Shown: positions 8-60,476 of the stretch, piece after piece
Layout of the letters: the number at the start of each line of letters is the position of its first letter
Numbering within the stretch: the first letter of the stretch is position 1
Assembly (NCBI GenBank): GCA_030700025.1
Contig: JAUYKI010000015.1
Location: 28,623-92,622 of the forward strand
Direction of reading: 5' to 3'
From: a bacterium
GTDB lineage: Bacteria; Patescibacteriota; Minisyncoccia; UBA6257; 02-FULL-45-10c
Length of the DNA: 64,000 nucleotides
Made by a program: the position numbers and the translations under genes
Notes under the pieces: model-generated
What the model was told of the DNA's origin: nothing
The model's database searches: none
Seen by the model: only the letters and a program-made list of their open reading frames with translations

Positions 8-275
8 GGGCCTGTCATAAAATTACTGGTTTAATTTGGAGGCCGAGATTTGAGCCAGATGCGAGGCACGACGACGAAATTGTAGCCATAGCTACGTTGA
101 GGAGGAGTAACAAAGTAGCTGGCCAAATATCGGCCTCCCCGAAGGGCCATAGTATTTTATGGGCTACGACTGCGTCACTCGTCGTCAATGTAACTCAAGT
201 TACAATCTCCTCCTCGTTTCTGGTCTCGCTCCAAAAATGCTGTGGCAAATAAGCCATTAATTTTATGACAGGCCC
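8..275. repeat. Palindromic (foldback) intergenic element bounded by an 18-bp perfect terminal inverted repeat. The arms are gggcctgtcataaaatta at 8–25 and taattttatgacaggccc at 258–275.
   Basis: The terminal inverted repeat and internal inverted repeats (gaggaggag/ctcctcctc, cgacgacg/cgtcgtc) were read directly. The element is GC-richer than its surroundings. It shares internal motifs with the element at 45814–46082 (gtagcCATAgctac, cgacga..gaaattg, gaggagg, cccgaaggg). Confidence 0.5.
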
Positions 276-339
276 TTAACTATAAAAGAGTTTATCATAA
301 ACACGTTATCTGTTAAAGTACAAAGAAGGTTTTTATCTT

Positions 340-1641: not shown

Positions 1642-2344
1642 ATTATCAATAATAATTCCCACTTATAACGAAGAGGGAAATATCGGGCGGTTGCTGACGC
1701 TAACCCATGAAATATTGCAATCGGAATCCATTTCGCACGAGCTGATTGTCGTGGATGACGGAAGTAAGGACAAAACCAGAGAAATAATCCGAACTCTGCA
1801 AAAAACTATTTCGGAAATTATACTGATTGAACGGGACAATGAACGGGGGTTAGCCACCGCTTTAATACGCGGTTATAACCAGGCCCGCGGGCTTTATTTA
1901 GGTTCCATGGACGCGGATTTTGCCCACGACCCCAAGTATATTCCAGCAATGATCCGCATTCTTGATAATGAGAAAGTGGATTTTATCATTGGCTCCCGCT
2001 ATGTCCAGGGCGCGCGCTTTGAGGGAAAGCCCCTTCTCAATAAATTAGCCAGCTTAACCGGGCAATGGCTCATTAAGATACTTTTGGGGCTAAAAATAAA
2101 AGACACGAGCAATAATTATCGGGTCTTTAGAAAAGAGCTTTGGGCGAAAATTAAAGATAAGCTGCATCCCGATGGAAACATTATGATTACCGAAATTGCT
2201 TATTTAGCAGAAAAAAATAATTTCAAATTTAAAGAAATACCAATTCTCTATATTGAAAGGCGCTTGGGCAAAAGCAAATTAAGCGTTTTTAAAGAGACGG
2301 TAAAATTTTTTAAGAATATCCGGAGAATAAAAAATAGCCGTTAA
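1631..2344 (+). CDS. GT2 family glycosyltransferase (polyprenol-phosphate sugar transferase, Dpm1-like)
   Basis: SIIIPTYNEEGNI...VVDDGSKD...DADFAHDP...IGSRY motifs of GT-A / Dpm1-like enzymes. The start was moved to the internal ATG at 1631, giving an 11-nt overlap with the upstream gene. Confidence 0.75.
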   Translation: MDIKLSIIIPTYNEEGNIGRLLTLTHEILQSESISHELIVVDDGSKDKTREIIRTLQKTISEIILIERDNERGLATALIRGYNQARGLYLGSMDADFAHDPKYIPAMIRILDNEKVDFIIGSRYVQGARFEGKPLLNKLASLTGQWLIKILLGLKIKDTSNNYRVFRKELWAKIKDKLHPDGNIMITEIAYLAEKNNFKFKEIPILYIERRLGKSKLSVFKETVKFFKNIRRIKNSR

Positions 2345-2356
2345 CGGCTATTTTTT
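2328..2356. terminator. Bidirectional hairpin terminator (perfect palindrome aaaaaatagccgTTAAcggctatttttt) between convergent genes
   Basis: Palindrome flanked by A/T runs on both sides. It covers the stop codons of both convergent genes. Confidence 0.5.
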
Positions 2357-3339
2357 AAATCAAGTTTTATTTTAGCCAGCACTTTCACGAATCCTTCTTT
2401 AATGGAATATTTCGGTTTCCAGCCCAAACTCTTAATTAATGCGGGGTCGGCTAAAACAGTAAACGAACCCTCAACTTTCTCTGCCAGGGGCTGAATTTTG
2501 GGGCTATAACCCTCTATTTCGGCCATCAACCGCGCCACCTCCTTAAAAGAAGTCGCCTGCCCCAGCCCGATATTCACGCCGCGGCCATCGCTGATATTTC
2601 TAATTGCCAAGCAAAGCGCGTCAACAAAATCATCAATATAAACAAAATCCCGAGTTTGATTTCCCGACCCCCAAACTACCAAGGGGTCCTCTCTTTTAAC
2701 CGCCCGCAAAGCAATGGAAGGAATTGGGTAAGATAAATCCTGATCCTCCCCATAACCGGAAAAAGGCCGGACGCAAACGACCGGCAGGCCGTATTTTTTC
2801 GCGGTCACGCCAGCCAAATATTCTCCATTCACCTTAATCCAGCCATAAATTGATTCCGGTATTCCCACTTCTCCTAAATTATTTCTAAGATCCAGAAATT
2901 CCTCCTTCATGGCAATTTGGCCTCCGGCCTCGCGGCTTTGCAGTTTATTCGGATAAGCCACGGAACTGCTGACATACAAAATCCGGCCAATCTTTTCTTT
3001 ATTTTTTACCGCCCAGCTAAAAAAAGTAGAATCAATAACCTGGTCATAAGCTACAAACATTGGATTCTGCTCTATCAGAACCGCCCGGCCGCCCACCACC
3101 GCCGCCAAATGATATACTTCGTCAAAATACGGCCAATCGGAATTATTATTTAAAAATTCCACTAAATTTTCTTGGACAAAATGAACTTTTGGCTTGTACG
3201 ATTCCGAAAGCCACGCATCCGGATGCTTTCCGCTAAAAAGATTATCAATAATCCAGACATCGCTGCCCTCGCTCAACAATTTATTAACTAAATGCCGGCC
3301 GACAAACCCGCAGCCGCCGGTAATTAAAATTCTTTTCAT
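2341..3339 (-). CDS. NAD-dependent epimerase/dehydratase family protein (nucleotide-sugar epimerase/reductase)
   Basis: N-terminal ILITGGCGFVGRHL Rossmann motif, with typical SDR-extended family length and organisation. Confidence 0.8.
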   Translation of the reverse strand: MKRILITGGCGFVGRHLVNKLLSEGSDVWIIDNLFSGKHPDAWLSESYKPKVHFVQENLVEFLNNNSDWPYFDEVYHLAAVVGGRAVLIEQNPMFVAYDQVIDSTFFSWAVKNKEKIGRILYVSSSVAYPNKLQSREAGGQIAMKEEFLDLRNNLGEVGIPESIYGWIKVNGEYLAGVTAKKYGLPVVCVRPFSGYGEDQDLSYPIPSIALRAVKREDPLVVWGSGNQTRDFVYIDDFVDALCLAIRNISDGRGVNIGLGQATSFKEVARLMAEIEGYSPKIQPLAEKVEGSFTVLADPALIKSLGWKPKYSIKEGFVKVLAKIKLDLKNSR

Positions 3340-3428
3340 ATCGTTATTATATTCTCTTACAATTCATTCAACAATCCTAATAATCCCGAAAGTAAACTTT
3401 TCTAATTGTAAAAAGGCCGTAATATGAC

Positions 3429-4317
3429 CTATAAAATTTCTTCTATTATATTTCTCCCCTTCCAACATAATAAGTTAGTTGCGGCATCTGGGTCGTTTGA
3501 GGGAAAAATTTTATAAAATTCGCGCTCCGTCATGCGCGTTACTTGCTTCTTCTCTTCATCGATTACGACCCACGAAAAATTCTCTTTAGTAAGAATATCA
3601 AAAAATTCCTCAATAGACGTACCGGCGCGCTCCATTTTCCGTGGCCAAACTTCACTAATCAATGTCAGATTGGGATTTTCTCCAAGTACCCGGCGCATAC
3701 CTCGCAAAGCTAATACTTCAGCTCCTTGAATATCCATCTTAATAAAACTTATCGGGGTAGGTGGTTTGATAACTTCGTCCAAAGTAGTAAGTCGTATGCC
3801 CACCCCCTTGGCGCCAAAAGATTCATAAATTCGATTATCGCCTTTATTGTAATCATTTATAAATATTTGGCCGCCGCCCGATTTGTCCGATAAACCCATC
3901 TCGTAAAGATTAACCCGATCTACAAAATGATTTTCTTGTACATTTTGCTTTAGTAACCGAAAAGTCTGTGGCGCCGGTTCAAACGCCCACACCTTACTCT
4001 CTCTCTCTCTCTCTCGTGCCTATCAACTCTGACAGAAGAACGGTGTAGTATCCGACATTCGCTCCAATATCTACCGCGTTGTCCCCTCGGGAGACTAGTT
4101 TACTTATCAAAAAAGTTTCATAGGGTTCATAAGAATTACTAAGCAGCTCTCGACTTATTGTCTCGTCAGTTGGATCAAGATTAAACACAAATCCACGCAC
4201 ATATGCCTTACGGGGCTTTATTGCGCTCAAAATTGAGCGCGCAATAGGTACCTTACGAAGACCAAGGCCTCTAAATGGTGCCAGAAAAAAAAGAATTAAT
4301 TTATATAACTTATTCAT
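3429..4317 (-). pseudogene. FkbM-family SAM-dependent methyltransferase, split into two ORFs (3994..4317 and 3429..3992) by a frameshift inside an (AG)9 tract
   Basis: The upstream ORF carries the SAM-binding motif VDIGANVGYYT and ends ...GTRERERE*, translated from the AG repeat. The downstream ORF carries the FkbM C-terminal motif FIKMDIQGAEVLAL. Adding one AG unit gives an in-frame fusion ...RERERESKVWAFEP of about 295 aa. Confidence 0.6.
3997..4014. repeat. Dinucleotide simple sequence repeat (CT)9 on the plus strand, (AG)9 on the coding strand
   Basis: Counted directly in the sequence; it sits exactly at the junction of the two methyltransferase fragments. Confidence 0.9.
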
Positions 4318-4347
4318 AGTATGGCTCGTAGGGATAAATTTTATCCT

Positions 4348-5961
4348 TTATAACTTATAAACATTTACAAAAGTGCCGCCATAAGCGCGGGCCCCGATTA
4401 ATTCGGGCGTGTCTATTTTAGTAACCCTGGAAATAGGATCGTCAATTCCAAAAAAAGATTTATAGCGATAAGTTAAAACTACCTCATAATCCACCAGATA
4501 ATCAATTCGGTTGTCTTGGAATAATTGCCAAATTTTATTTTCCTTCATTGCCTTATAAGCGCTGTTGTTGATTAATCCGTCGGAATTCATAACAAACCGA
4601 TCGGAAAAATAACCCATAATACCGCTGTTGAAAGCGGCAACCCTGGCATCCGCGGGAAGATTGTTCTTAGTCCAAATTGCGACTTGATACATTCCTAATT
4701 GATTAATATTTTCGGATAAAATCTTATTAAAATGCCCCAAATAAGAAACGCTTAGCAAAACCGCCAAAACCACCAGTGCTTTTCGGCGGTAGGAATATAA
4801 AGTGGCCCGACTTAAAACCAAAGCAATAAAAATCGTGGCGAAAATCGGGAACGTGGCAAAATACCACGACCGGCCAGACCAGCGGATTGCTCCGTGCCCC
4901 GCCACCAGCAAAAAATATCCGGCAAAAAATACCAATAAGGCCAGCCACTCCTTGGAAGAAAAAAGTTCTTTTAAAAAACTCCCCAATTCCATTTTTTTCT
5001 TTTTATAAAAATAAAAAATAATTGCCGAGGGAATGAGCGCGGTCCCCGCCATCCAAAAAAATGACTTAAGCATATCTCGGGTTGAATAATATATCGGCCA
5101 GCCCAAAGTACTAATATTGGAAGCCACGGTGCCAAAAAAATTATGCAGAGACCAAAGTCCGATATAAGTTAAACTCCGCTCTTTATAAAACCAAAGCCGG
5201 TGATTAATTAGGGTGTAAGCCAAACCGCTTGCCGGAACAAAAGAACCGAAATAAAAATAATTATATAAGAACCAGGGGGCAGCTAATAAAAACGCCGGCA
5301 ATCCAAAAAAAAGAAGTTGTTTCCACCGCAATTTCCCAAATCGAAAACCCAAGAAAATAAAAACTGCCGCCAAAAAAACACCGTAATCCAAACGAGAAAG
5401 GACTAGCAATCCTCCGATTATTCCCAAAAGAATGAGGTTCTTTGGCGAGTCCCCGCCTTTAAGGATTTTTAAAAAAATCCTGAAGAATACCGTAAACAGA
5501 AAAAGCGCCAAAGGAGTTTCCAGCCCGCTCAAATAAAAAGACAGGTTCCAGGGATTAATGGCATAAGTTAAAACCAAAAGAGACGGGGCAAGCTTATCAT
5601 TGGTAAAAGTTGAAATAATTTTCCAAATTAATACACTGGTCAGAAAAAAAAGAATGGCGGATAAGGTTAATATAATATGAAGCGGAAGAATTTTATCTCC
5701 GGGGAAAAAATAAAAAACCGCCGCGCTAATGCCCATCCATAAAGGATGGTATCCGTTCGTCGCGTGCTCTCCGTCAAAAGTAGGCCCCAATCCGCTGGTT
5801 AAATTAATCGCGGTTTTAAAATAATAAAAAGCGTCATCTACCAGAAATCTGGCGAGCAGGCTTTCAATCGGCTGCCAAGCCAGCCAAAGATAGGCAAAAA
5901 AAATCAACATCAAGAGTCCTAAAAAAACTTTATTTTCTTTTAAGGAAGTTATTAGATTCAT
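4348..5961 (-). CDS. Polytopic membrane protein with an extracytoplasmic C-terminal domain; putative GT-C-type glycosyltransferase
   Basis: About 12 hydrophobic segments followed by a soluble C-terminus of about 130 aa. It lies in a glycosyltransferase cluster. No specific motif was recognised. Confidence 0.4.
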   Translation of the reverse strand: MNLITSLKENKVFLGLLMLIFFAYLWLAWQPIESLLARFLVDDAFYYFKTAINLTSGLGPTFDGEHATNGYHPLWMGISAAVFYFFPGDKILPLHIILTLSAILFFLTSVLIWKIISTFTNDKLAPSLLVLTYAINPWNLSFYLSGLETPLALFLFTVFFRIFLKILKGGDSPKNLILLGIIGGLLVLSRLDYGVFLAAVFIFLGFRFGKLRWKQLLFFGLPAFLLAAPWFLYNYFYFGSFVPASGLAYTLINHRLWFYKERSLTYIGLWSLHNFFGTVASNISTLGWPIYYSTRDMLKSFFWMAGTALIPSAIIFYFYKKKKMELGSFLKELFSSKEWLALLVFFAGYFLLVAGHGAIRWSGRSWYFATFPIFATIFIALVLSRATLYSYRRKALVVLAVLLSVSYLGHFNKILSENINQLGMYQVAIWTKNNLPADARVAAFNSGIMGYFSDRFVMNSDGLINNSAYKAMKENKIWQLFQDNRIDYLVDYEVVLTYRYKSFFGIDDPISRVTKIDTPELIGARAYGGTFVNVYKL

Positions 5962-14628: not shown

Positions 14629-15264
14629 TTATTTTGATGTTCGTTTCTCGCAAACATAAGTCACGTGGGAAAAAGGAGTGCCCTGATGAGATTTTTGATA
14701 CTGAATATTGAATTGGAGGGTCTTTAAAAAACTCAAAAGTTCCGCGGGAAAGCGATAATAAATTCGGTCGCCCGGATACAAAAGATGATCTGCCATCTGA
14801 GTCAAAATAAATTTCCACCAAGGATACCGGTCAATTTCGCAAATAATTAACTTCCCGCCCTCCTTTAATTTATCATAACAGGCGCGGATCAAAACCTCCT
14901 GCTCGGAATAAGAATTTAAATGATGCAAAACATGAATTAACAAAATACAATCGGCACTTGGTATTTGGGCCCTTGTGATATCAGCGGCCTGAAAATGAAC
15001 GTTGCCCAATCCCCGATCGGCATATTTTATCTTGGACATATCCAGTTCAAGCCCCAAAATCTCCCGCTGAGAAGATAATAACGCCAAAAGATTGGAAAAA
15101 ATTCCATAACCGCAGCCTAAATCAATAATAAATCCGTCCCGCGGCACATCCGCCTCCAGCTTCCGGTAAGGAGCGGTAAAAAACCGAATTTTAATAAAAA
15201 GGCTGGGCCATCCTAATCCTTTATATTTTTTTTTGATTTCCCGTACCGCTGAAGAATAATCCAT
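14629..15264 (-). CDS. Class I SAM-dependent methyltransferase
   Basis: IIDLGCGYGIFS motif I and LKEGGKLII motif. Confidence 0.7.
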   Translation of the reverse strand: MDYSSAVREIKKKYKGLGWPSLFIKIRFFTAPYRKLEADVPRDGFIIDLGCGYGIFSNLLALLSSQREILGLELDMSKIKYADRGLGNVHFQAADITRAQIPSADCILLIHVLHHLNSYSEQEVLIRACYDKLKEGGKLIICEIDRYPWWKFILTQMADHLLYPGDRIYYRFPAELLSFLKTLQFNIQYQKSHQGTPFSHVTYVCEKRTSK

Positions 15265-16016: not shown

Positions 16017-17726
16017 TTAACGCTGACGCTTTTTAACAATGTAAGAATCGTCTTCAAAAACTATTTCACCGGGCACTTGTTTATAAATAAGATCTTTATC
16101 TTTCTGGTAATACACCAGGTAATCCACATGGTATTTCTCCAAATAATGATTAAATTCAACCGGGTCCGGATTAAGCCGTTTGGCGCGAATCGGCCCGAAA
16201 TCATATGGGGTATATTCCAGCAGGGTAGCGGGCGTAAAATCCCGGCCTAAAATCTTGGCTTTAATTTTATTTATAACATTATCTTTTTGCAATGCGGAAT
16301 TAAAAGCTTGGCCGAAAACCCGCGTCTGCTGTTGCTCAAGATTATCAGTAATATATTGATAAGTAACGTCCCAATAAATATAGCGGTCTAGCAATTCTTC
16401 CGTCGGCATCAGTTGCAATTCTTGGCTCGGATGAAAATATAAATAATTATTCGTTAATAAATTAATGTCGTTTCCCAGATCCTTCGGGGCATACACCACT
16501 TTATCGCGAATTTGATTCGCCAAAAACCAGTCCACGACCGCATCCGCCCGGCCGCCGACATAAGTTTCTGCGGTGGCCGGATTGTTTATTTGCGGATCGC
16601 TGATAATTAAATAAGCCTTATTAGCTGCCATCCCAACCGCTACTAAAATAAAAATGGCGGTGGCGATTTTTTTATAGGAGCCGAAATAATTGCTTACGAT
16701 AAAAACTATACCGCCCCAAAAAGCAACAAAAAAGAACAAAAGGGTGGGCAAATAATGCGAATTAAATTCTAGCTGCATTCCGGTAATTATCTGCTGATTA
16801 AGAACCATTAGTCCGGCAACCAGCCCCATGGCAATCTTATCTAAAGTCCCTTCGGTAACTGCCTTCATATCTAGTTTCGGAAAAATATATTTTCGTAATA
16901 CAAAAAAGGCTATTAATGAAGCAATTAAAAAGGCCTGAGTATATAAACCGGCCGGCCAACGGCTATATAAAGCGCCGATCCGAACCATGCTTTCTTTGTA
17001 ATAAGCTAACTGGCTGATCTGCAACAGGTGGATAACATACCAGGAAGCCACGCCGGCAATAATTAAATATTTATACAAGTATTTCCAAATAATTTTTCTT
17101 GCCTGCCAAAACATCCAGCAATCGCTGGCCGCTAAAAGCGCCAAGGCGAAAGTCCAATAATATGGATAAACATAAAATAGCGATCCGGCCAAAACAGCCA
17201 ATCCGATTTCTCGTTTCCAAAATTTTAAATTCGAAAAATAAAAAATAAAAAATAATGCTAATGGAATAAAGTTTATCTCGGGGCTCAAGGTTCGGCCCCA
17301 ATCCAGCCGAGGAATAAAAATATAGGCGGCAGCGGCTAAATAACCGAAATAATGAAAATTAAAAATTACCAAAAACGCGTTTATTAAAAGCGCCATAATT
17401 ACAAAGACCGCCAAATAGCCGGTGATTAAGGCGTAAAATTTTACATCCAGTCCCAATGCGCTTTTAAATAGCCCGGCGGCATGAATGTTTAAAGCCGGAT
17501 ACAAATACGGCTGATAACGCCACTCGGAAAGATACGGGCTGCCCAATTGCCAATTGCCCTTAGAGCTCTCATTAATCAATGATAGATAATAATTAAATCC
17601 GCTGACCTGCTTGGTATTCAAATAATTATCAAAAACAATAGCCTGGGTAAGGTCAAGCTGAATTATGACCGTAAACAAAAGGCTTAAAATCAATATAGTA
17701 TAAATGGATTTTGTTGGGGGGGGCAT
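16017..17726 (-). CDS. Polytopic membrane protein with a C-terminal extracytoplasmic domain (putative GT-C-like glycosyltransferase)
   Basis: About 12 hydrophobic helices plus a C-terminal domain of about 170 aa. A C8 tract lies at codons 2–4 (MPPPT). Confidence 0.45.
   Translation of the reverse strand: MPPPTKSIYTILILSLLFTVIIQLDLTQAIVFDNYLNTKQVSGFNYYLSLINESSKGNWQLGSPYLSEWRYQPYLYPALNIHAAGLFKSALGLDVKFYALITGYLAVFVIMALLINAFLVIFNFHYFGYLAAAAYIFIPRLDWGRTLSPEINFIPLALFFIFYFSNLKFWKREIGLAVLAGSLFYVYPYYWTFALALLAASDCWMFWQARKIIWKYLYKYLIIAGVASWYVIHLLQISQLAYYKESMVRIGALYSRWPAGLYTQAFLIASLIAFFVLRKYIFPKLDMKAVTEGTLDKIAMGLVAGLMVLNQQIITGMQLEFNSHYLPTLLFFFVAFWGGIVFIVSNYFGSYKKIATAIFILVAVGMAANKAYLIISDPQINNPATAETYVGGRADAVVDWFLANQIRDKVVYAPKDLGNDINLLTNNYLYFHPSQELQLMPTEELLDRYIYWDVTYQYITDNLEQQQTRVFGQAFNSALQKDNVINKIKAKILGRDFTPATLLEYTPYDFGPIRAKRLNPDPVEFNHYLEKYHVDYLVYYQKDKDLIYKQVPGEIVFEDDSYIVKKRQR
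17716..17723. repeat. Homopolymeric G8 (C8 on the coding strand) tract at codons 2–4 of the membrane protein gene
   Basis: Counted directly: gttGGGGGGGGcat. Confidence 0.9.
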
Positions 17727-23128: not shown

Positions 23129-23830
23129 TTAATCTATAAACCGATATTTTATAATGGTCCATAAAATCAAAAATCCGTGCTTCCAATTAATTTTTTTTCC
23201 TTCTTCATAATTGCGGGGGTGGTACTTAATTGGGGCGGTAATAATTTTCTTTCCGCGCTTTAAAATTTTACAAACCAATTCATTATCAAAATCAAAATTA
23301 TTAGTTTTAACATTAATAGAATCTATCAGTTTTTTAGTAAACGCCTTATAACACCCCTCATATTCTTCGATGTTTGCCCTATAAAGCGCGTTGGTAAGCC
23401 AGGTAATAACTTCGTTGCCGAACCAGCTAAACCAATACAAAGATTTATGCCGCCGAGCATCATGCTCGGGCTGAACCCGGACGCCCAATACCGCCTCGGC
23501 CCGGCCATCTAAAATCGGCTGAATCATTGCCGTGTAATCATTGGGATCATACTCTAAATCCGCATCCTGAATAATAACCATATCACCGGTAGCGTTTTTA
23601 AATCCGGTTTTAACGGCGCCGCCTTTGCCAAGATTTTTTTCATGAAAAATATAAATAATTCCCGGGGTCTTTTTTAAAATCTCTCTGGTGCCATCCGTAG
23701 AGCCGTCATCTACTACAATAATCTCTTTTTCTATCTGGCCCAGCGAAACTGCCTTTACCGCCCCCAATAGCTTTTCTATGGTGTTTTTCTCGTTAAAAGC
23801 GGGTATAATAATGGAAAGTTTAGACATCAA
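23129..23830 (-). CDS. GT2 family glycosyltransferase
   Basis: SIIIPAFNE...[10 protein letters not shown]...QDADLEYDP motifs. Confidence 0.75.
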
Positions 23831-30723: not shown

Positions 30724-31929
30724 TTATTTTACCATCTTTACGGCACCAGCCGATTCTAGGCAATCCCTGTATTGTTTCCAATATTCTTCCTGCTTAGGCC
30801 AATTTTGCAATAACCTTAAAGCATTCTGTTTAAATTCCTCTCTTTTAAAAGAGTTTTCTTTCGATTCTAAAATCGCCTTGGCGAGCGCCCGCTCATCGCC
30901 CACCGGAACCACCCAGCCATCCAAATCATCAATCAATAATTCTCCCGCCAAACCAACGTCCGTCATAACTACGGGCAAGCCCGCCGCCATCGCCTCCACA
31001 ATCGTCCGTCCGTAACCTTCATAATTAGAAGTCAGTAAAAAAATATCAGCTGTTTTATAATAAGAAGCCAGATCATCAGTCCAGGGCTCAAGAATAATAT
31101 TATTTTGTAATTTGTAATTTGTAATTTGTAATTTAAGCGCTTCGTGTTTTGGTCCATTGCCCACTATTACCAATAGTGATTTAGGGTATTTCTCCGCCAC
31201 CTCCCGCATGGCCTCAATTCCCAAGCCAATATTTTTTTCTTGAGTCAGCCGGGAAGCCATCAAAATAATAAAATCGCGATCGGAATATTTTTGGCGCAAA
31301 TCTATTTTTATTTTAGCTGTTTGAATTTTTTTAACATCAACTAAAATCGGCAATACCGATATGGGGCGTAAGGTATGGGGTTTAGGATATAGGGCTAATA
31401 ATGATTGCTTGATTCGCTCACTAACAACCCGGATGCCGTCCGCGCGGGGAAGTAAAAATTTAGCCAGCCAAACCCGCAGTTTATTTTTGAAAGATTCACT
31501 ATAAAAATAAGGGCTGAAAATATCGGCGTGTATTTGCAGCTGCAAAGACAAATTGAATTTCTTTTTCAAACACCAGCCGACTAATCCCGTTTCAAAAGGA
31601 TCCTGCGCGCTTATAGCGCAATTTCTAATTTCTAATTCCCAATTTCTAATGATATTTTTCCCGATTTTATACGCGTCCCAAAAATACAATATCCGGAAGC
31701 GCGTATTGGTGGGATAAGTAAAAACATTCTCGCTAATTTGTAATTTAAAATTTATTTGTGATTTGTCCTGCCTGCCGATAAGCATGGGATTTGTGATTTG
31801 TGATTTTCGTGTTGCAAACACGATTATGTGCAGTTCTTCAAAAAGCGGGCCGTAATTGCCAATCCTTTTCCTGGCTTCAGACTTTTCATCCAATATTTGT
31901 TTATCGGTAGAGAACATTAAAACTTTCAT
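30724..31929 (-). CDS. GT4 family glycosyltransferase
   Basis: ...IFLLTSNYEGYGRTIVEAMAAGLPVV... region. Contains three heptanucleotide arrays. The start was moved to MKVLMF (ATGA overlap with the upstream gene). Confidence 0.75.
   Translation of the reverse strand: MKVLMFSTDKQILDEKSEARKRIGNYGPLFEELHIIVFATRKSQITNPMLIGRQDKSQINFKLQISENVFTYPTNTRFRILYFWDAYKIGKNIIRNWELEIRNCAISAQDPFETGLVGWCLKKKFNLSLQLQIHADIFSPYFYSESFKNKLRVWLAKFLLPRADGIRVVSERIKQSLLALYPKPHTLRPISVLPILVDVKKIQTAKIKIDLRQKYSDRDFIILMASRLTQEKNIGLGIEAMREVAEKYPKSLLVIVGNGPKHEALKLQITNYKLQNNIILEPWTDDLASYYKTADIFLLTSNYEGYGRTIVEAMAAGLPVVMTDVGLAGELLIDDLDGWVVPVGDERALAKAILESKENSFKREEFKQNALRLLQNWPKQEEYWKQYRDCLESAGAVKMVK
31104..31134. repeat. Heptanucleotide tandem array (TTTGTAA)x4 within the coding sequence, encoding KLQITNYKLQ
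   Basis: Read directly; translation confirmed. Confidence 0.9.
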
Positions 31930-33080
31930 AGATTTTTCCATATCTCTATATATCCATTAATCATCATATTGTGGGTATAAGCCATTTCTTTTTTTCGCGC
32001 TAATTCTCCCAAACGCTGGCGCAACGATTCATCAGAAATAATATCAATAAGCGTCCGCCTTAACGCGTTATAGTCATTATACGGAACCAAAAGTCCGGTT
32101 TGACCGTGAATTACAATTTCAGGATTACCGCCAACGTCCGTAGTAACTACCGGCAATCCTAAGGCCTGAGCTTCCCGTATCTGATGCGAAAGTCCTTCGT
32201 AGCCGGTATTAAGAACAAATACATCGGACGCTTTCAAATATTTTATCAATTCATTTTTAGGCAACGAACCCATTAATACCGCATTCTTTTCAATTCTGAG
32301 CTTATTAATTAAACTCTCTAAATTTGCCCGTTCCGGCCCATCGCCGATAATAAACAAATGTAAATCGGAAAATTTATTCTTTAAATCAGCCACAATTTTT
32401 ATTAACATATCAAAACCCTTCCATGGCACCAAGCGGCCGACCGAAACCAAAATAGTTCCTTGTAATCCTAAAATTCCCCTTTCCAAATCTTTGCCGCTGG
32501 TGGAAATCATCGGGGAAACCGCATTTAAGATAACGTTTATCTTTTCTGGCGCCACTCCCCAACGAACCACTATTTTTTTTAAATATTCGCTGGGAACAAT
32601 TACCAAATCCGAACCATCGGCTACCCAGCTCCGAATCCACTTCAATCCCTCCACCACCCAATGATATTTTTTCTTGGTATCCTGAAAGTCATCAATAGAA
32701 TCCTGAACTCTAAACCGCTGCGCTCCCTGTTCCCAGGCGTAATCACCGACTGCTTTTAAGATAAACTTCCGATGCAAGAATTTATTCGCTAAAAATGCTG
32801 GCAAGCCCGCGCTAACCGGATCTTGGGCAAAAATAATATCCGCTTTCCGCCCCAGCTGCCACACTTTTAAAAAATAAATAAAGTGTCGTAATCCCTTGGG
32901 AATGTGGCGGGAAACCCTGCGAATATTAGACGGGTCGCCTTTTTGAGATTCTCCATAAGAAAGCGCGATTACTTTAAAACCCCGCTTCGGCAATTCTTCC
33001 AAAAGCAATTTAGTAAAAGTTGCCGGCCCTCCGATATCCGGCGGAAAAATTCCTGTAGCGATTAAAATTGTTCTGGCCAT
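31926..33080 (-). CDS. GT4 family glycosyltransferase
   Basis: ...VFVLNTGYEGLSHQIREAQALGLPVV... region. Confidence 0.75.
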   Translation of the reverse strand: MARTILIATGIFPPDIGGPATFTKLLLEELPKRGFKVIALSYGESQKGDPSNIRRVSRHIPKGLRHFIYFLKVWQLGRKADIIFAQDPVSAGLPAFLANKFLHRKFILKAVGDYAWEQGAQRFRVQDSIDDFQDTKKKYHWVVEGLKWIRSWVADGSDLVIVPSEYLKKIVVRWGVAPEKINVILNAVSPMISTSGKDLERGILGLQGTILVSVGRLVPWKGFDMLIKIVADLKNKFSDLHLFIIGDGPERANLESLINKLRIEKNAVLMGSLPKNELIKYLKASDVFVLNTGYEGLSHQIREAQALGLPVVTTDVGGNPEIVIHGQTGLLVPYNDYNALRRTLIDIISDESLRQRLGELARKKEMAYTHNMMINGYIEIWKNL

Positions 33081-53609: not shown

Positions 53610-54863
53610 TTAATTAGACGACTTTAATATAAAGTATAACACATCCGATAATTTTTCAGTATCTTTTTTACTCGTTCCCCGGCCGAAAGTAATCCGCAAT
53701 CCGGCGCTGGCCCGCTGGTCCGAATAGCCCAAAGCTTTTAAAACATGCGATGGCTTGCAAATCCGGGCGGCGCAAGCCGCGCCCGGGGAAACCGCGAATC
53801 CTGCCAAATCCAGCTTGATAATTAAATCCTGGGCCGTTTCTTGGCCGGGAAAATATAAATTAACATTATTCGGCAAACGCCTTTCTAAATCCCCGTTTAA
53901 TTCTGCTTTGGGCAAAATAGTTTTAATCCGGTTCAAAAAATATTTTTGTAAATCCCTTAATCGCTTGGCTTCTTTGGCCCGATCCCTATCGGCAATTTCC
54001 ATAGCCTTGGCAAAGCCAATAATGCCGGGAACATTCTCTGTTCCTCCGCGCAATCCCGATTCCTGTCCGCCGCCGGTAATCAGCGGTTGTACCGCTGAAA
54101 AATCCGAAATTCGAATATCGAAATTCGAAATGTTTTGAGTTTTAGATTTTGAATTTTGAATTTGTTTGTGATTTGTGATTTGGAATTTGGAATTTTTCCT
54201 GACATAGAGAAGCCCAACTCCTTTGGGCCCGTAAATTTTTTGAGAAGATAAAGTCATTAAATCTACTCCCAGCCGCTGAACATTGCAATCTAAATAATTA
54301 AATGCCTGGGCCGCGTCAGTATGAAAAAGCGGATATCCGCCGTTAGCCGCCTTGTTTTTCTTGAATTCCGAAATTATTTTGCTGATTTCCAGAATCGGCT
54401 GGATTGTTCCGACTTCATTATTGGCATACATTATGGAAACTAAAATAGTCCGGTCGTCCAAAGCAATTCGGAATTTTTTTAAATCCACAATTCCCTTTTT
54501 ATCTACCGGCAAATAAACCACTTCCACGCCATCCCTCTCCAGCTCTAAACAAGTTTCTAAAATTGATTCGTGTTCCACCGCGGAGATAATAATTTTCGGA
54601 CGGCTGATATTTTTAACCGCGCCCCGCAACGCCAAATTATTCGCCTCGGTCGCTCCGGAAGTAAAAACTATTTCTTTATAATGGCATCCTAAAATCTCCG
54701 CGGCCTTCTGGCGGGCATTAAATACCGCCGCCGACGCTTCCTGGCCAAACCAATGCAAAGCCCCGGGATTGCCGTAGATTTTTCTAAAATACGGCCGCAT
54801 GGCTTTCTCCGCCCGCGGATCCACGGGTGTCGCCGCCGCGTAATCAAAGTAATGTCTGCGCAT
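53610..54863 (-). CDS. Cysteine desulfurase (IscS/NifS family, class V aminotransferase) carrying an inserted low-complexity loop of about 33 aa
   Basis: SSQKIYGPKGVGLLYVRK (PLP-lysine region) and AVSPGAACAARICKPSHVLKALG (catalytic Cys loop). The insert between YVRK and GGGQE is encoded entirely by a heptamer array. Confidence 0.8.
   Translation of the reverse strand: MRRHYFDYAAATPVDPRAEKAMRPYFRKIYGNPGALHWFGQEASAAVFNARQKAAEILGCHYKEIVFTSGATEANNLALRGAVKNISRPKIIISAVEHESILETCLELERDGVEVVYLPVDKKGIVDLKKFRIALDDRTILVSIMYANNEVGTIQPILEISKIISEFKKNKAANGGYPLFHTDAAQAFNYLDCNVQRLGVDLMTLSSQKIYGPKGVGLLYVRKNSKFQITNHKQIQNSKSKTQNISNFDIRISDFSAVQPLITGGGQESGLRGGTENVPGIIGFAKAMEIADRDRAKEAKRLRDLQKYFLNRIKTILPKAELNGDLERRLPNNVNLYFPGQETAQDLIIKLDLAGFAVSPGAACAARICKPSHVLKALGYSDQRASAGLRITFGRGTSKKDTEKLSDVLYFILKSSN
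54097..54201. repeat. Array of about 15 phased heptanucleotide units (sub-families TCGAAAT, RTTTTGA, TGTGATT, TGGAATT), 105 nt in total, encoding a 35-aa insertion in the cysteine desulfurase
   Basis: Units parsed directly. The 7-nt phase is kept across all sub-families. The translation is KNSKFQITNHKQIQNSKSKTQNISNFDIRISDFS. Confidence 0.85.
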
Positions 54864-54867
54864 AATT

Positions 54868-55929
54868 TTATTGTAACTCATTCAATTGTTTTTGGATTTT
54901 ATATCCTTGGCAATGTTTTAACAAGCCCAAATAAGATTGTAAATTTTTGCCATTAATTTTTCTCAATAACCTTCTTTTTGTCTTAGTTCTTAAAATTCTA
55001 TAGTGGGGTCTTGCGATATATCCTAAAAAATCAATTCCTTGGGAAAATTTCCGAATAATTATCTTATTCGGATGTAGGGTTAAATTTAAATTATCCGCTA
55101 AAAACTTGCTTACTTTATCTGTAATTCCTATAAAATTCTCTTTTGTATCGCTTAAAACAACAAAGTCGTCGCAATAACGGAGATAATGTTTAATTTTTAA
55201 TTTATGCTTAATAAATTGGTCCAATTCATTTAAATAGATGTTGGCAAAAAGCTGGCTGGTTACGTTGCCAAGTGGCAATCCTTTGTCCGGATTTTTTTCA
55301 AAACTTTTTATAACTTTTTCAATAAGCCAAATGTCTTTTGGGTCAAAAATTTTCTTTTTGATTAAATTCAATAAAATTTGCTGGTCAATAGAATCAAAAA
55401 ACTTACTGATATCGCACTTTAAAACAAAAACCGGCTTGCAGTAATTCTTGCTCAATTTCCGAAGAAAAATTCCTAACCGTTCTACCGCGATATGCGTCCC
55501 CTTGCCCAGCCGCGATGAATCAGAATCGTAAATAAAACCCTTATCAAAAATCACGTATAAAATCCGAAAAATTGCTTGGTGCAAGACCCGGTCTCGGACG
55601 CTGGCTTTATGAATATGCCGCAATTTCGGGTCTTGAACATAAAAAGCTGTGTATAAATCAGGTTTGTAAATTTTATCCTTTAATTCCTGATGAAGTTGAA
55701 ATAAATTGTCTTCCAGATTAAACTCAAATTGCTGAACGTCCGATTTTTTCCTTTTTCCGCGCCGGAATTCTTTCCACGCTAAAAATAAATTTTCCAGCGA
55801 AATTATCCGTTCAAAAATATTATGACTTTTAATACCCCCCCCCCTCCAAATTTGCCTCTGATTCATAAGCTTGATGAATTCTATCGCAATATCTATCTGC
55901 TCGGCAAGCAAATTCCGAAACGGGATCAT
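54868..55929 (-). CDS. Diversity-generating retroelement (DGR) reverse transcriptase
   Basis: RT motifs 1–7 are present. These include DISKFFDSID and the DGR-type motif 4 GLPLGNVTSQLFANIYL (I/LGxxxSQ where other RTs have QGxxxSP). Also present are YLRYCDDFVV (YxDD) and LHPNKIIIRKFSQGIDFLGY. Similarity is closest to Bordetella phage bRT as recalled from memory. The true start is probably internal (about 55866) or near the G10 tract. Confidence 0.9.
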   Translation of the reverse strand: MIPFRNLLAEQIDIAIEFIKLMNQRQIWRGGGIKSHNIFERIISLENLFLAWKEFRRGKRKKSDVQQFEFNLEDNLFQLHQELKDKIYKPDLYTAFYVQDPKLRHIHKASVRDRVLHQAIFRILYVIFDKGFIYDSDSSRLGKGTHIAVERLGIFLRKLSKNYCKPVFVLKCDISKFFDSIDQQILLNLIKKKIFDPKDIWLIEKVIKSFEKNPDKGLPLGNVTSQLFANIYLNELDQFIKHKLKIKHYLRYCDDFVVLSDTKENFIGITDKVSKFLADNLNLTLHPNKIIIRKFSQGIDFLGYIARPHYRILRTKTKRRLLRKINGKNLQSYLGLLKHCQGYKIQKQLNELQ

Positions 55930-56181
55930 TTTGGAATTTTTTTGAAAATTGAAAATGTTTTACTAGATGTTCTCGAATTGATTATTACTGCTTCCCTAGA
56001 AACTAAAATTAATAAAATTTCGCCGTTGAATTCTGCTCGGATTAAAATAGAAATCCTAAAACGGCTGATTAGATTGATACAGGAATTTAAAATCATTGAA
56101 GCGAATAAATATCTTACGTTAGAAAAAGACCTTCAAGAAATTTCCAAAATGATCAACGGCTGGATTAAATACTTAAAATAA
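55822..56181 (+). CDS. DGR accessory variability determinant (Avd-like four-helix-bundle protein)
   Basis: 119 aa. LIHKLDEFYRNIYLLGKQIPKRDHFGIFLKIENVLLDVLELIITA aligns with Bordetella bAvd LIVERYERVISYLYPIAQSIPRKHGVAREMFLKCLLGQVELFIVA. The C-terminal EISKMINGWIKYLK aligns with EVGRILGSWIARV. The bAvd sequence is recalled from memory. The ORF is on the opposite strand to the RT and target. Confidence 0.65.
   Translation: MTFNTPPPPNLPLIHKLDEFYRNIYLLGKQIPKRDHFGIFLKIENVLLDVLELIITASLETKINKISPLNSARIKIEILKRLIRLIQEFKIIEANKYLTLEKDLQEISKMINGWIKYLK
55836..55845. repeat. Homopolymeric C10 (G10 on the RT strand) tract in the region shared by the 5' ends of the RT and Avd ORFs
   Basis: Counted directly. 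It encodes PPPP in Avd and RGGG in the RT ORF. Confidence 0.9.
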
Positions 56182-56204: not shown

Positions 56205-56208
56205 TATA

Positions 56209-56609: not shown

Positions 56610-57347
56610 TTAAACAGAAACTACTGCGCGAGCCCGCAAATCACCACTGGCGCTGCCCGGACCGTACCAGCCGACCCCGAGCCAGCGACCGATCGGACCC
56701 CAATCCACGCACGGCACGCTGCCATCAGGATAGCGCGAACCAGCGCAAAGTGTCCAATTCTTTTCATCCAGGTGTTTATTAGTTTCCAGGAAATACTTGA
56801 GTTCCAGGAGCAGACGCTCTTCCAGGGCGATGCCATTGATTTGCTCTTTGGCCAAGTCATTGGCTGACTTGTTCTTGAGCTCTTCGTCGGCTTCCTGGCG
56901 GTCTCTGACCCAGATGGCGTAGGTTTCGCCGGTGTTTCGGACCGAAGTGATGGAATTGAGATTGTTCGTGCAGGTCCAAACGCTCATGTGTTTCCTTAGG
57001 ACTTGGACAATCTGATTGAGGGTCAATCCCTTGGCAACGACAATCAACCAATCAATGCCCGGAACACGCTTTGGGGGCTGGATTTTTGAGATATCCAGCT
57101 CAATGCCAAATTCCTGGCGGTAGAGGGTTTGCCAGGCGCGAAGCATTGCTCGCACACTCTGGCCGGGTCGGGTCTGCTTTTCTTTGATGACAGAAGCTGT
57201 TGCTTCCGCGAAATTCGGATTCTCCTTAATTCGCTGAAGCGCCCCGGACACCTGATCCGGATCGCGCTTGCCATCCCGCACCAGCTCCAGCACCGTAGTC
57301 ACCAAATCCAGCAGCCGCGCTTTCTTTCGTTCGGTTCTTGCGAACAT
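56610..57347 (-). CDS. DGR target (variable) protein. The N-terminal region is uncharacterised. The C-terminal region ends in the VR and may be C-type-lectin/FGE-like.
   Basis: The C-terminus is ...NWTLCAGSRYPDGSVPCVDWGPIGRWLGVGWYGPGSASGDLRARAVVSV. The start was set at ATG 57347 (MFARTERKK), preceded by AAGGAG. The gene is markedly GC-richer than the neighbouring RT and Avd. Confidence 0.8.
   Translation of the reverse strand: MFARTERKKARLLDLVTTVLELVRDGKRDPDQVSGALQRIKENPNFAEATASVIKEKQTRPGQSVRAMLRAWQTLYRQEFGIELDISKIQPPKRVPGIDWLIVVAKGLTLNQIVQVLRKHMSVWTCTNNLNSITSVRNTGETYAIWVRDRQEADEELKNKSANDLAKEQINGIALEERLLLELKYFLETNKHLDEKNWTLCAGSRYPDGSVPCVDWGPIGRWLGVGWYGPGSASGDLRARAVVSV
56617..56744 (-). other. 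DGR variable repeat (VR) forming the last 43 codons of the target gene
   Basis: 104 of 128 positions are identical to the TR. All 24 mismatches are at TR adenines (A to G/T/C in the coding sense). It ends 5 nt before the stop. Confidence 0.85.
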
Positions 57348-57426
57348 TTTTGTTCTCCTTAGTTCTTTCACATCTGTCCAAATCCGGTTATCGCGGATTG
57401 GTATCTGATTTTGAAAGAACGTTCCT

Positions 57427-58211: not shown

Positions 58212-58778
58212 ATGGATAAATTAGTCTTAGACATAGAAACTAAAAATACTTTTGCCGAAGTCGGCGGGCAAGAAAACATCCACAAATTGGAGGTATCTTT
58301 TGTCGGCGTTTATTCTTACAACCAAAACCAATATTTTTCTTTTTTTGAAAATGAATTGGATAAGCTGGGCCCAATGCTCCAAAGCGCCGGCTTAATAATC
58401 GGATTCTGTTCTAACCGCTTTGACCTGCCGGTTTTAAAAAAACATTACAAATTTAATATCATGTCTCTGGAAAGCCTGGATATTTTGGAAGAAATTGAGG
58501 AAAGGCTCGGCCACCGGATCAGCCTAAACGAATTGGCCTACGCCAATTTGAGAACCCAAAAAACCGCCCACGGATTGGAAGCGATTAAATTTTATAAAGA
58601 AGGCCGGCTGGAAGAATTAAAAAAATATTGCCTGAACGACGTAAAAATCACCAAAGACCTTTATGACCTGGGAATGTCCCAGGGTCACTTAGTCGTTCCC
58701 CAAAGAACTACCGGCGAAATGCAAAAAGTGGAATTTGACTGGCATACCCGATTGCCTTCGGCGTCTACCCTATTTTAA
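58212..58778 (+). CDS. Predicted 3'-5' exonuclease (RNase-H-like / DEDD-type, YprB/PolB-exo-like)
   Basis: N-terminal LVLDIETKNTF (Exo I-like DxE), with later acidic motifs. Confidence 0.4.
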   Translation: MDKLVLDIETKNTFAEVGGQENIHKLEVSFVGVYSYNQNQYFSFFENELDKLGPMLQSAGLIIGFCSNRFDLPVLKKHYKFNIMSLESLDILEEIEERLGHRISLNELAYANLRTQKTAHGLEAIKFYKEGRLEELKKYCLNDVKITKDLYDLGMSQGHLVVPQRTTGEMQKVEFDWHTRLPSASTLF

Positions 58779-59796
58779 AACGCTTTATCCGTTTTAGCTC
58801 CTGATTCAGGAGTTTTTTATTTTTCGCTTCTATATTGATTCTTAAAAGCGGTTCGGTATTGGAAGCTCTAATATTAAACCAGTGGTCCGGAAACTCTGCC
58901 GTTAAGCCATCTAACTTAGAAATTTTCGCTTTTTGTTTTTTATAATATTGTTCTACTCTTTCCAAACTTTTAACTTTTAACTTTTCGCTTTTAACTTTAA
59001 GGTTGATTTCCCCGCTCCGGTAATACTTCGGCGATTTGTCCAGATATTCAGAAACTGGAATGTTTAATTTAGAAACAAAATTTATAATATGAATTGCCGC
59101 TAAAATACCCGAGTCCCAGACCGTGTCTGGTCCGCCTCTGGCGGAAAAATCTGGAAATCCAAAATAATAATGGCCGGAATGTTCCAGGCCCAGCGGAATC
59201 TTTTTCTCCCGCATCAGCTTTTTGAAAAAATAATGGCCGACGCGTGAAACGCTAACTTTTGACTTATAACCATTAACTATTAACTTTCTAATAAGTTGAC
59301 CGGAGATAACGCTGACGATATAAGATTTTGGCTTTAGCTCTTGCAGTAATAAATAACCGGTTTCGTCCGGACTGATTACTCTGCCCAAATTGTCTACCAA
59401 AAACATTCTGTCGCCGTCGGCGTCAAAAATCACGCCCAAGTCCGCGTGGTGTTTTAATACGGCTTTTTGTAGTTGGCTAATCGCTCCCGGCGCCAGCGGA
59501 TTCGGCCCATGCCCGGGAAAATGACCGTCGGGTTTATCGTTGATAAAAACAATTGACAATTGACAATTAACAATTAACTTCCGGAAAAGTTCTTTTAGAA
59601 CTTTTCCGGTTGTGCCGTTGGAACAATCAAAAACTATTTTTAACGGCTTGCCCTGAGCCTGCTTGCCCCGCTGTGGCGGTGGTCGAAGGAGTCTTAAAAA
59701 TCGTTTTAAATACTTAACGTATAAACCCGCGTAATCCATATGATTATTATACAGAAAATAAAAAACTCCGCGCATTACGGAGTTAGGCATAGCCAC
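58765..59796 (-). CDS. Phosphohexomutase (phosphomannomutase/phosphoglucomutase) C-terminal fragment, domains II–IV
   Basis: FDCSNGTTG, FDADGDR (Mg2+ loop), GLEHSGHYYF (sugar-binding loop) and RASNTEP (phosphate-binding loop). Its likely independent start is MDYAGLYVKYLK at about 59738, preceded by TATAAT. Contains three heptamer arrays. Confidence 0.7.
   Translation of the reverse strand: MAMPNSVMRGVFYFLYNNHMDYAGLYVKYLKRFLRLLRPPPQRGKQAQGKPLKIVFDCSNGTTGKVLKELFRKLIVNCQLSIVFINDKPDGHFPGHGPNPLAPGAISQLQKAVLKHHADLGVIFDADGDRMFLVDNLGRVISPDETGYLLLQELKPKSYIVSVISGQLIRKLIVNGYKSKVSVSRVGHYFFKKLMREKKIPLGLEHSGHYYFGFPDFSARGGPDTVWDSGILAAIHIINFVSKLNIPVSEYLDKSPKYYRSGEINLKVKSEKLKVKSLERVEQYYKKQKAKISKLDGLTAEFPDHWFNIRASNTEPLLRINIEAKNKKLLNQELKRIKRFKIG
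58965..58999. repeat. Heptanucleotide tandem array (AACTTTT)x3 plus 2 degenerate units in the phosphohexomutase coding sequence, encoding KVKSEKLKVKS
   Basis: Read directly; translation confirmed. Confidence 0.85.
59551..59578. repeat. Heptanucleotide tandem array (AATTGAC)x2(AATTAAC)x2 in the phosphohexomutase coding sequence, encoding VNCQLSIVF
   Basis: Read directly; translation confirmed. A further phased stretch lies at 59251–59292. Confidence 0.85.
59761..59784 (-). terminator. Hairpin (aactccg-TAATGCG-cggagtt) plus T-run on the minus strand, directly after the small ORF stop
   Basis: 7-bp stem followed by TTTTTTATTTT on the minus strand. Confidence 0.5.
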
Positions 59797-60019
59797 CGGC
59801 TTCTTCTTGCTGGATAGCGCTTAACACTTCTTCTAATTTCCCTTCCCGGATATGGTCAATCGGACGCTGATTGCCGATAAAAGCGTTGTGGCCGTGAAGC
59901 CAATTCAACGCGGTTTCCGGATTATACATATTTAAAAGCCGTTGGAAAATACTCAAAATTCGCAAAGACCTTAAAATCTCTTCTTCCGAGTCCCAGCTTA
60001 AAACTATCTTTTCTCCCAT
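59783..60019 (-). CDS. Small ORF of 78 aa resembling the C-terminal toxin-binding domain of DUF2384 (Xre/MbcA/ParS-type) antitoxins. It is inserted between the two phosphohexomutase fragments.
   Basis: YNPETALNWLHGHNAFIGNQRPIDHIREGKLEEVLSAIQQEEAGGYA fits the DUF2384 pattern A..WL...N.AL.G..PIDLL....G...V...L..IE.G.YA. It has its own GAGGGAGG RBS and a terminator hairpin. Confidence 0.5.
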   Translation of the reverse strand: MGEKIVLSWDSEEEILRSLRILSIFQRLLNMYNPETALNWLHGHNAFIGNQRPIDHIREGKLEEVLSAIQQEEAGGYA

Positions 60020-60089: not shown

Positions 60090-60476
60090 CTATTTTTTAA
60101 ATAAAAGCAAAATTTCCTTCCCACTAATCGGTTTGGCGTTTTTCCCAACCACCTTCAGCCCGTTAAAATTTTTCGGATTATGGGAAGCCGTAACCATAAT
60201 CCCTCCGCTCGCCTTCAGCTTATTCACCAAAAAATAAAACATGGGGGTTGTTGTCATTCTAACGTTCTTAAGAACGTTAGAATGTTGCAAGCCCTTTAAA
60301 ACCGCCTTATAAAGCGCCGGCGAACTCAAACGCGCGTCATGGGCAACAACTATCCTCTTTCCTAAAAGCTTAGGTAACTTTATCGCTATCGCGGAAACCA
60401 CCCTTTCATTTATCTCTCTCGGGTATTGCCCCCTGATATCATAGGCTTTAAAAATTTTCTCATTCATTACTTCCAT
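60090..60476 (-). CDS. Phosphohexomutase N-terminal fragment (domain I with the active-site serine loop)
   Basis: IFKAYDIRG..., GIMVTASHNP (TASHNP phosphoserine motif). It ends at a TAG about 70 nt upstream of the small ORF. Confidence 0.7.
   Translation of the reverse strand: MEVMNEKIFKAYDIRGQYPREINERVVSAIAIKLPKLLGKRIVVAHDARLSSPALYKAVLKGLQHSNVLKNVRMTTTPMFYFLVNKLKASGGIMVTASHNPKNFNGLKVVGKNAKPISGKEILLLFKK

Follow-up and report, generated by a model that had tools for sequence, protein, structure and literature searches.

A candidate phase-variable (AG)n tract within an FkbM-family methyltransferase gene in a glycan cluster of Patescibacteria

Introduction

How should one read a gene whose two halves are free of other lesions and which is broken precisely at a simple sequence repeat? 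This question is raised by an FkbM-family methyltransferase gene at positions 3429-4317 (minus strand) of a 64-kb stretch of DNA (contig JAUYKI010000015.1; hereafter referred to as the window), which belongs to a genome of the Patescibacteria, or Candidate Phyla Radiation (CPR), of the Paceibacteria/Parcubacteria type. The gene is interrupted by nine units of the dinucleotide AG, and the protein is divided over two open reading frames (ORFs) of 107 and 187 amino acids. Such an arrangement might reflect the OFF state of a reversible switch, a gene in decay, an error in the assembly, or an unusual manner of producing an intact enzyme. In our assessment, the locus probably represents a working contingency switch, in which slipped-strand mispairing at a simple sequence repeat (SSR) sets the reading frame and which is OFF at nine units.

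Slipped-strand phase variation is textbook knowledge for Campylobacter, Helicobacter, Neisseria and Haemophilus, all of them host-adapted pathogens. Patescibacteria presumably live in attachment to other cells, and phages target them heavily. In the literature that we searched, we found no report of repeat-driven ON/OFF switching in CPR bacteria/Patescibacteria; the nearest case is a 9-mer in-frame repeat in a surface protein of Gracilibacteria. The mechanism considered here is already known, and what is new is the host lineage and the presence of two different repeats at one and the same site.

Results and Discussion

Anatomy of the interrupted gene

The plus strand of the window reads (CT)9C at positions 3997-4015, corresponding to G(AG)9 on the coding strand, and Tandem Repeats Finder (TRF) describes this tract with a period of 2, 9.5 copies and 100% matches. 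The perfect (AG)9 microsatellite itself occupies positions 3997..4014 on the minus strand, with the additional plus-strand C at 4015; it encodes RERERE (residues 102-107) and is flanked by the sequences GTCAGAGTTGATAGGCAC and TAAGGTGTGGGCGTTTGAACC. Translation in frame 1 from the ATG at 4317 yields the N-terminal ORF (3994..4317, minus strand; 107 aa), which comprises the N-terminal subdomain, strand 1, the Gly-rich loop VDIGANVGYYT for binding of S-adenosylmethionine (SAM), and helix A; its C-terminal end reads ...VDIGANVGYYTVLLSELIGTRERERE and is followed by the stop codon TAA at 3996-3994. The second frame reads the tract as ...RERERESKVWAFEPAPQTF... and is then open through the FkbM motif FIKMDIQGAE up to the stop at 3429. 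As listed, the C-terminal ORF (3429..3992, minus strand) consists of 187 aa from a GTG at 3992 and extends from strand 2 (VWAFEP) to the end of the protein; a single base separates the upstream stop codon from this GTG. An initial annotation made from the sequence of the window had claimed that (AG)9 splits an FkbM-family methyltransferase gene, that the upstream fragment ends in RERERE translated from the tract, and that a fragment with the MDIQGAE motif opens just past the stop in another frame. The tract sequence and the frame translations bear out these three claims.

When alleles with three to 14 AG units were constructed in silico, the frame was open solely at n=4, 7, 10 and 13, giving proteins of 292, 294, 296 and 298 aa. 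The (AG)10 allele joins both frames as ...GTRERERESKVWAFEP... into a gene of 296 codons. The same annotation had proposed that (AG)10 or (AG)7 would restore an enzyme of about 295 aa; the rebuilt alleles specify 296 and 294 aa, and the predicted junction is exact. Repeat number thus toggles the product between an intact methyltransferase and a truncated one, as judged from the in-silico alleles, the fused form of which contains the whole PF05050 domain.

The nine AG units lie far beyond what chance would provide. They form the sole dinucleotide repeat of at least five units within the 64-kb window, and no match to the tract occurred in 100 dinucleotide-preserving shuffles even with two mismatches tolerated. 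First-order Markov simulations (n=300) gave longest dinucleotide repeats of 4.4 units on average and of 6 units at most.

Fold and homologues of the methyltransferase

The two ORFs specify parts of a single domain. The fused protein scores 60.9 bits against Pfam PF05050 (Methyltransf_21; cut-off 22.7), with its residues 83-247 matching profile positions 1-170 of 173 in one stretch that spans the junction. Taken alone, the C-terminal ORF matches this profile from position 26 onward (26-171), and the N-terminal ORF has no match in Pfam. Modelling of the fused protein with AlphaFold2, from an alignment of 58 homologues, gave one domain with a mean pLDDT of 94 and a pTM of 0.92, in which strand 1 (residues 81-84), helix A (90-99), a loop (100-109) and strand 2 (110-113) follow each other. 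The RERERE segment sits in the helix A-strand 2 loop, which is the least confident block of the core. Foldseek retrieved the FkbM structure 2py6 as the top match in the Protein Data Bank (PDB), followed by other class I SAM methyltransferases. The Gly-rich motif I and the acidic residue ending strand 2 that characterize the class I SAM-methyltransferase fold are both present, and residues D83, G85, A86, G89, E114 and P115 are invariant or nearly so among homologues. The protein hence resembles the FkbM family (PF05050; 2py6) in its motifs DIGANVG, AFEP and FIKMDIQGAE, in domain length and in fold; it differs in that RERERE lengthens the helix A-strand 2 loop by 4-5 residues relative to about 160 homologues. 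According to the standard topology of this fold, this loop should lie at the edge of the sheet and away from the cofactor, a position that would explain how additional Arg-Glu pairs might be tolerated. Judged by the model, the predicted 107-aa product of the OFF state is devoid of strands 2-7 and cannot be an enzyme.

Full-length homologues (35-47% identity) consist of one chain of about 285 residues, with LVGxxGxVxAFEP at the junction. In a tblastn comparison, a frame change was present in 3 of 162 related loci, namely the window's own copy in a second assembly (L001), a close orthologue (L002; both are described below) and one locus from a member of the Planctomycetaceae, where it falls at another site. 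At the junction site, the frame is continuous in 159 of the 160 more distant loci. The segment equivalent to residues 95-116 has a length of 17 aa in 161 of 171 alignments versus 22 aa in the (AG)10 form, and in none of the aligned homologues does it contain a homopolymer of more than 6 nucleotides or a dinucleotide repeat of more than 3 units. Since homologues lack the repeat in a segment of fixed length, we regard the AG repeat as a lineage-specific insertion. The comparison with homologous loci that the initial annotation had suggested consequently reveals single-frame genes and no genuine two-gene arrangement, with the one close orthologue frameshifted by a G8 run at the same position.

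Two frameshifts in distant homologues were encountered along the way. The homologue from a metagenome-assembled genome (MAG) of the Planctomycetaceae shifts frame near residue 201-205 (L079, 6490-6500), a site unlike that of the break in the window. In P0234, a distant FkbM homologue with 49% identity to the N-terminal part, the coding sequence is divided into ORFs of 187 and 98 aa beside a T7 run (L164, 3540-3585), and a T8 run would join its halves into ...LDVFFADRSVKIDFIKMDIQGAE. The identical split is found in three further loci (L165, L166, L167); the sequences come from NCBI, ENA, JGI and Logan assemblies, perhaps of related samples. We set P0234 aside as evidence for the locus studied here, as its break is at another site.

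A close orthologue is frameshifted at the same codon by a different repeat

A collection of 5.8 billion protein clusters contains only two relatives with more than 50% identity. One of them, L001, is a Logan contig from sequencing run SRR13727534 that is 100% identical to positions 252-5899 of the window (5,648 bp), including the nine AG units; the same run also contains the window's ClpB gene (49541-52180). L001 is therefore a second independent assembly, probably of the same reads or population, and we dropped it as a candidate for a second population.

The other relative, L002, stems from the Logan assembly of run SRR22388032 and is a true orthologue with 78% amino acid and 76-78% nucleotide identity. 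At the junction, the window reads ACG-(AG)9-T-AAG-GTG-TGG versus ACC-AAG-AG-GGGGGGG-GTG-TGG in L002, which places a G8 run at the same codon position. L002 is frameshifted as well: a 124-aa ORF continues in the wrong frame and overlaps by 55 nt with a 186-aa ORF that starts, in a different frame, from the same GTG. A run of G9 or G6 would repair this gene to ...GTKRGGVWAFEP..., in agreement with the pattern of the family. Working cut-offs for calling phase-variable loci are at least six dinucleotide units and at least seven G/C (PMC6321876); the fully pure (AG)9 tract and the G8 run of L002 both exceed them. The repairs needed are opposite, as the window copy requires +2/-1 nt and L002 +1/-2 nt. 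This is what one expects of random repeat-length states and not of a conserved recoding signal.

Between the window and L002, dN/dS amounts to 0.116 for the N-terminal part (dS 1.10) and to 0.095 for the C-terminal part (dS 1.47), values to be read with the saturation of dS between the two copies in mind. Neither copy contains a further stop codon or frameshift. A dN/dS of about 0.1 at dS >1 and the absence of other lesions indicate that the gene was kept functional over a long divergence, yet it is OFF in both snapshots.

Searches for additional close orthologues came back negative: a profile built from the two sequences detected 160 loci in 185,579 species genomes and the JGI metagenomes, none of them with more than 43% identity, and a profile of the N-terminal fragments retrieved nothing beyond the window, L002 and a single distant protein. 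We also noted that the L002 methyltransferase gene directly follows an orthologue (80% amino acid identity) of the window's GT2 glycosyltransferase gene 23129..23830, with positions 2-193 of L002 corresponding to 23114-23305 of the window. In the window, this GT2 gene lies 19 kb from the methyltransferase gene, a displacement that marks the glycan clusters of the two relatives as rearranged mosaics.

Slipped-strand phase variation as the favoured interpretation

A gene maintained by selection, different pure and frame-sensitive repeats in the same loop, and a distance of one step from the ON state in both copies: together, these features have the appearance of a contingency locus. The setting in a glycan cluster supports such an interpretation, because surface-glycan genes typically are subject to phase variation, as exemplified by cj1426 of C. 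jejuni. Slipped-strand phase variation had been put forward in the initial annotation; the anatomy of the locus, the frame arithmetic, the G8 run of L002 and the signature of purifying selection speak for it, and variation in repeat number was not recovered, nine being the only unit number found in the collections searched.

The proposed switch would operate as follows. A lineage-specific (AG)n tract would have expanded among the codons for the surface loop that links helix A to strand 2. In-frame changes in length at this point would do no more than alter the number of Arg-Glu pairs, which the protein should tolerate. With nine units, translation would halt at the TAA just past the tract, leaving a 107-aa stub without strands 2-7, and the gene would be OFF. 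A gain of one unit (n=10) or a loss of two (n=7) through replication slippage would restore an enzyme of 296 or 294 aa and turn the gene ON. The population would then be composed of cells with and without one added methyl group, most likely an O-methyl group on a sugar, on a surface glycan, and the presence or absence of this group would alter what phages, hosts or partners perceive. From the sequence data, we infer the high-frequency change in tract length, the existence of ON cells, the glycan substrate and the advantage of switching.

Several observations weigh against a selected switch. Tandem repeats with a period of 7 are about 9-fold enriched in the window (21 TRF rows versus 2.35 expected; maximum of 6 in 40 simulations), and nearly all of these heptanucleotide repeats are located inside ORFs, several per gene and with related units AAATYNN. 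Their enrichment even in a housekeeping gene for an IscS-like protein suggests a general expansion-prone regime, and (AG)9 may be a by-product of a slippage-prone genome instead of a selected switch. G/C homopolymers of at least 8 nucleotides are not enriched (2 observed, 2.6 expected under a first-order Markov model), and we dropped the C8 and G10 runs of the window as supporting evidence on this ground. The comparative argument rests on two members of the orthologue group in the collections searched; both of these copies are OFF, and the collections yielded no ON allele. In an exact look-up of the N-terminal fragments of alleles n=4-13 in a collection of 15 billion proteins, only the n=9 fragment was present, on one contig. 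The second assembly, L001, probably derives from the same reads and hence does not represent an independent population.

A pure 18-nt repeat in an expansion-prone genome should, on the other hand, change its length often, and the locus would accordingly phase-vary in practice, selected or not.

Alternative explanations

Recent non-adaptive pseudogenisation, in which a slip would have killed the gene here and, independently, in L002 with no selected reversible switching, is an unlikely explanation in our judgement. Decay at a mutational hot spot nevertheless is the one serious rival: both known copies are OFF, only n=9 is on record among the ten predicted alleles, the expansion of 7-nt repeats inside ORFs reaches into the IscS-like housekeeping gene, and the methyltransferase gene is rare and part of a mosaic, fast-changing cluster, as is evident from the L002 gene standing beside a GT2 orthologue that is 19 kb away in the window. 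This scenario has difficulties in explaining why both halves are free of other lesions with a dN/dS of about 0.1 over a dS >1, and why different pure repeats, each one step from ON, occupy the same codon position, an outcome that is hard to reach via two independent accidents. Moreover, a pure 18-nt tract that has slipped once will slip again, so that decay of this type and phase variation would be mechanistically alike, selection for reversion being the one point that separates them.

An assembly or sequencing error, the real tract being in frame [for example (AG)10] and the gene intact, had been raised by the initial annotation, and repeats are indeed classic sites of consensus errors. We consider this possibility quite improbable. 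Over 5.6 kb, no base differs between the MAG contig and L001, the nine units included. In the unrelated run SRR22388032, a different repeat, the G8 of L002, shifts the frame at the same site, so that an error would have had to strike this codon twice, independently. Short reads easily span a dinucleotide tract of 18 nt, and as a rule consensus errors in such a tract are uncommon.

Programmed recoding would provide a full-length enzyme, constitutively even if weakly, through ribosomal frameshifting or transcriptional slippage; long repeats can make RNA polymerase or the ribosome slip, the G8 run of L002 would in principle permit -1 re-pairing of Gly tRNAs, and some leaky rescue by slippage of the polymerase or the ribosome might take place all the same. 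As the basis of the arrangement, recoding is very improbable: the shifts required are opposite (+1/-2 in the window, -1/+2 in L002), so that no conserved signal would serve both, the slippery sequences (AG)9 and G8 are unrelated and no conserved site exists, a +1 slip from GAG onto AGU at GAG-UAA in the window would not re-pair, and no Rfam element is present in the window. Transcriptional slippage at dinucleotide repeats is not known as an established mechanism in bacteria.

A genuine split enzyme, whose 107-aa and 187-aa products would assemble into an active methyltransferase after re-initiation at the GTG 1 base past the TAA, draws some appeal from this spacing, from a purine-rich stretch ahead of it that might weakly recall a ribosome-binding site and from the GTG at the same codon in L002, but is hardly credible, given that about 160 homologues are single-chain proteins, that the break cuts through the Rossmann core, after helix A and ahead of strand 2, that the ORFs of L002 overlap by 55 nt rather than being coupled and the arrangement is consequently not conserved, and that the break coincides with hypermutable repeats in both copies.

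Comparison with known switches and significance

Among established systems, the closest in function to the slipped-strand switch that we favour is cj1426 of C. jejuni, a capsule methyltransferase gene that is phase-variable through a poly-G tract and whose product carries out 6-O-methylation of heptose (PMC8437040). In both cases, an intragenic simple repeat sets the frame of a methyltransferase gene within a surface-polysaccharide cluster, and the outcome is the presence or absence of a methyl group, a consequence that we presume for the locus in the window. The repeat is a G/C homopolymer in cj1426 and an AG dinucleotide here, and an animal-associated member of the Campylobacterota contrasts with uncultivated Patescibacteria. 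Switching of cj1426 was measured at about 2-3 x 10^-2 per division in a reporter (PMC8437040), whereas for the window it is deduced.

With respect to the type of repeat, the oipA (hopH) gene of H. pylori and related outer-membrane-protein genes offer a parallel, since the number of CT repeats sets their expression via slipped-strand mispairing (PMC10564699). Shared features are a CT/AG dinucleotide repeat in the 5' third of the coding region and a frame determined by repeat number. In oipA, the repeat is part of the signal-peptide region of an adhesin-like outer-membrane protein, whereas it falls into a structural loop of a cytoplasmic enzyme in our case; variation between strains and within hosts has been documented for oipA, and the locus in the window is known from a single allele with n=9.

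A further parallel is offered by phase-variable genes for protein and LOS glycosylation in Neisseria and Haemophilus (pgl, lgt and lic), where homopolymers or repeats of 4-7 nt switch sets of glycan-modifying enzymes, and combinatorial surface glycoforms result. Those organisms are pathogens restricted to their hosts and have numerous switchable loci in each genome, whereas the 64 kb of an environmental genome considered here contain one clear locus and a few candidates.

Stochastic variation in the methylation of a glycan would be a plausible hedge against phage adsorption, or a means to tune the recognition of partners. We advance with some reserve the broader proposition that CPR bacteria use hypermutable repeats as switches of surface glycans, with selection for switchability having been sufficiently strong to place (AG)n and Gn in the same dispensable loop of this methyltransferase in two diverged lineages, and that this strategy is layered with a diversity-generating retroelement (DGR) of the same window and with its many frame-sensitive 7-nt repeats in glycosyltransferase genes. 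If true, it would amount to a layered toolkit for surface variation in episymbiotic ultra-small bacteria. The gain lies in breadth and not in principle, and the locus is a case that can be tested directly in existing reads. Annotators should be aware that a 'frameshifted pseudogene' in a MAG of this kind may be a switch.

Genomic setting

The assignment of the window to Patescibacteria of the Paceibacteria/Parcubacteria type follows from its ClpB (49541-52180): apart from an identical MAG protein, the best matches have 80-83% identity and belong to genomes of Candidatus Paceibacterota, Patescibacteria group and Harrisonbacteria. The initial annotation had placed the locus in a glycosylation cluster, and this assignment is correct: most of the window is occupied by a very large glycan cluster with GT2 and GT1/GT4 glycosyltransferases, at least five SAM methyltransferases, a sugar C-methyltransferase, a GDP-mannose 4,6-dehydratase, several epimerases/dehydratases and at least five PMT_2-type membrane glycosyltransferases. 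Directly upstream of the methyltransferase gene, and like it on the minus strand, lies the gene for a multi-pass hydrophobic protein of 537 aa without a Pfam match (4348-5961), which is preceded by a gene for a GT1-family glycosyltransferase (5958-7160, minus strand). The gap between the hydrophobic protein gene and the methyltransferase start is just 30 nt, suggestive of one transcription unit. Downstream, 89 nt past the methyltransferase stop, follows a gene for an NAD-dependent sugar epimerase/dehydratase (2341..3339, minus strand), and polarity on this gene is possible. Scans for promoters and terminators around the methyltransferase gene gave results at chance level, and the 64-kb window contains no tRNA gene or Rfam element that we could detect. 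Family and neighbourhood together suggest a glycan as the methyl acceptor, presumably at a sugar hydroxyl.

Other repeats and variable elements of the window

Examples of the heptanucleotide repeats are located at 19300-19331, 19103-19126, 31104-31134, 31620-31650, 34870-34908, 54100-54196, 58965-58998 and 59548-59578. The perfect arrays (AAAAATC)4.6 and (AAATTAC)4.4 fall into a GT4 glycosyltransferase gene and the ORF 30724..31941, where a change by one unit would shift the frame. In the IscS-like cysteine desulfurase (ORF 53610..54881, minus strand), an in-frame insertion of about 29 residues, FQITNHKQIQNSKSKTQNISNFDIRISDF, at positions 54095-54181 is built from about 12 degenerate units of seven nucleotides. 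In solved IscS structures, the chain runs through this point without interruption, residues 11-234 and 264-419 of the query aligning to residues 3-218 and 217-370 of the chain.

Two homopolymers stand near the start of genes. A C8 run (17716-17723, coding strand) directly follows the ATG of a 569-aa hydrophobic ORF without a Pfam match (16017..17726) inside the glycan cluster; this start reads ATG CCC CCC CCA, in frame, and the run is a possible second switch. A T9 run (15226-15234; A9 on the coding strand) is found 30-38 nt into a 211-aa SAM-methyltransferase ORF (14629..15264), likewise in frame.

A phosphoglucomutase/phosphomannomutase-like gene (58765-60476, minus strand) is distributed over two ORFs, one for domain I (60090..60476) and the other for domains II-IV (58765..59796). 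We rejected this split as a second repeat-caused frameshift, as a 78-aa ORF (59783..60019) intervenes and no simple repeat is found at the break.

The window also harbours a complete DGR on the minus strand (54868-57371). Its reverse transcriptase is encoded by the ORF 54868..55929 (minus strand; Pfam RVT_1, 2.8e-22), the 5' part of which contains a G10 run at 55835-55844 (coding, minus strand), in frame and at about codons 29-32; with one G/C run of at least 10 nucleotides observed and 0.17 expected per window (Markov model), this run passes the cut-off and is not significant alone. A template-like repeat of 129 nt (56208-56336, minus strand) has an 81%-identical copy at 56616-56744, which is located at the 3' end of a 253-aa ORF without a Pfam match (56610..57371, minus strand). 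All mismatches between the two copies fall at adenines of the template copy, the hallmark of a DGR.

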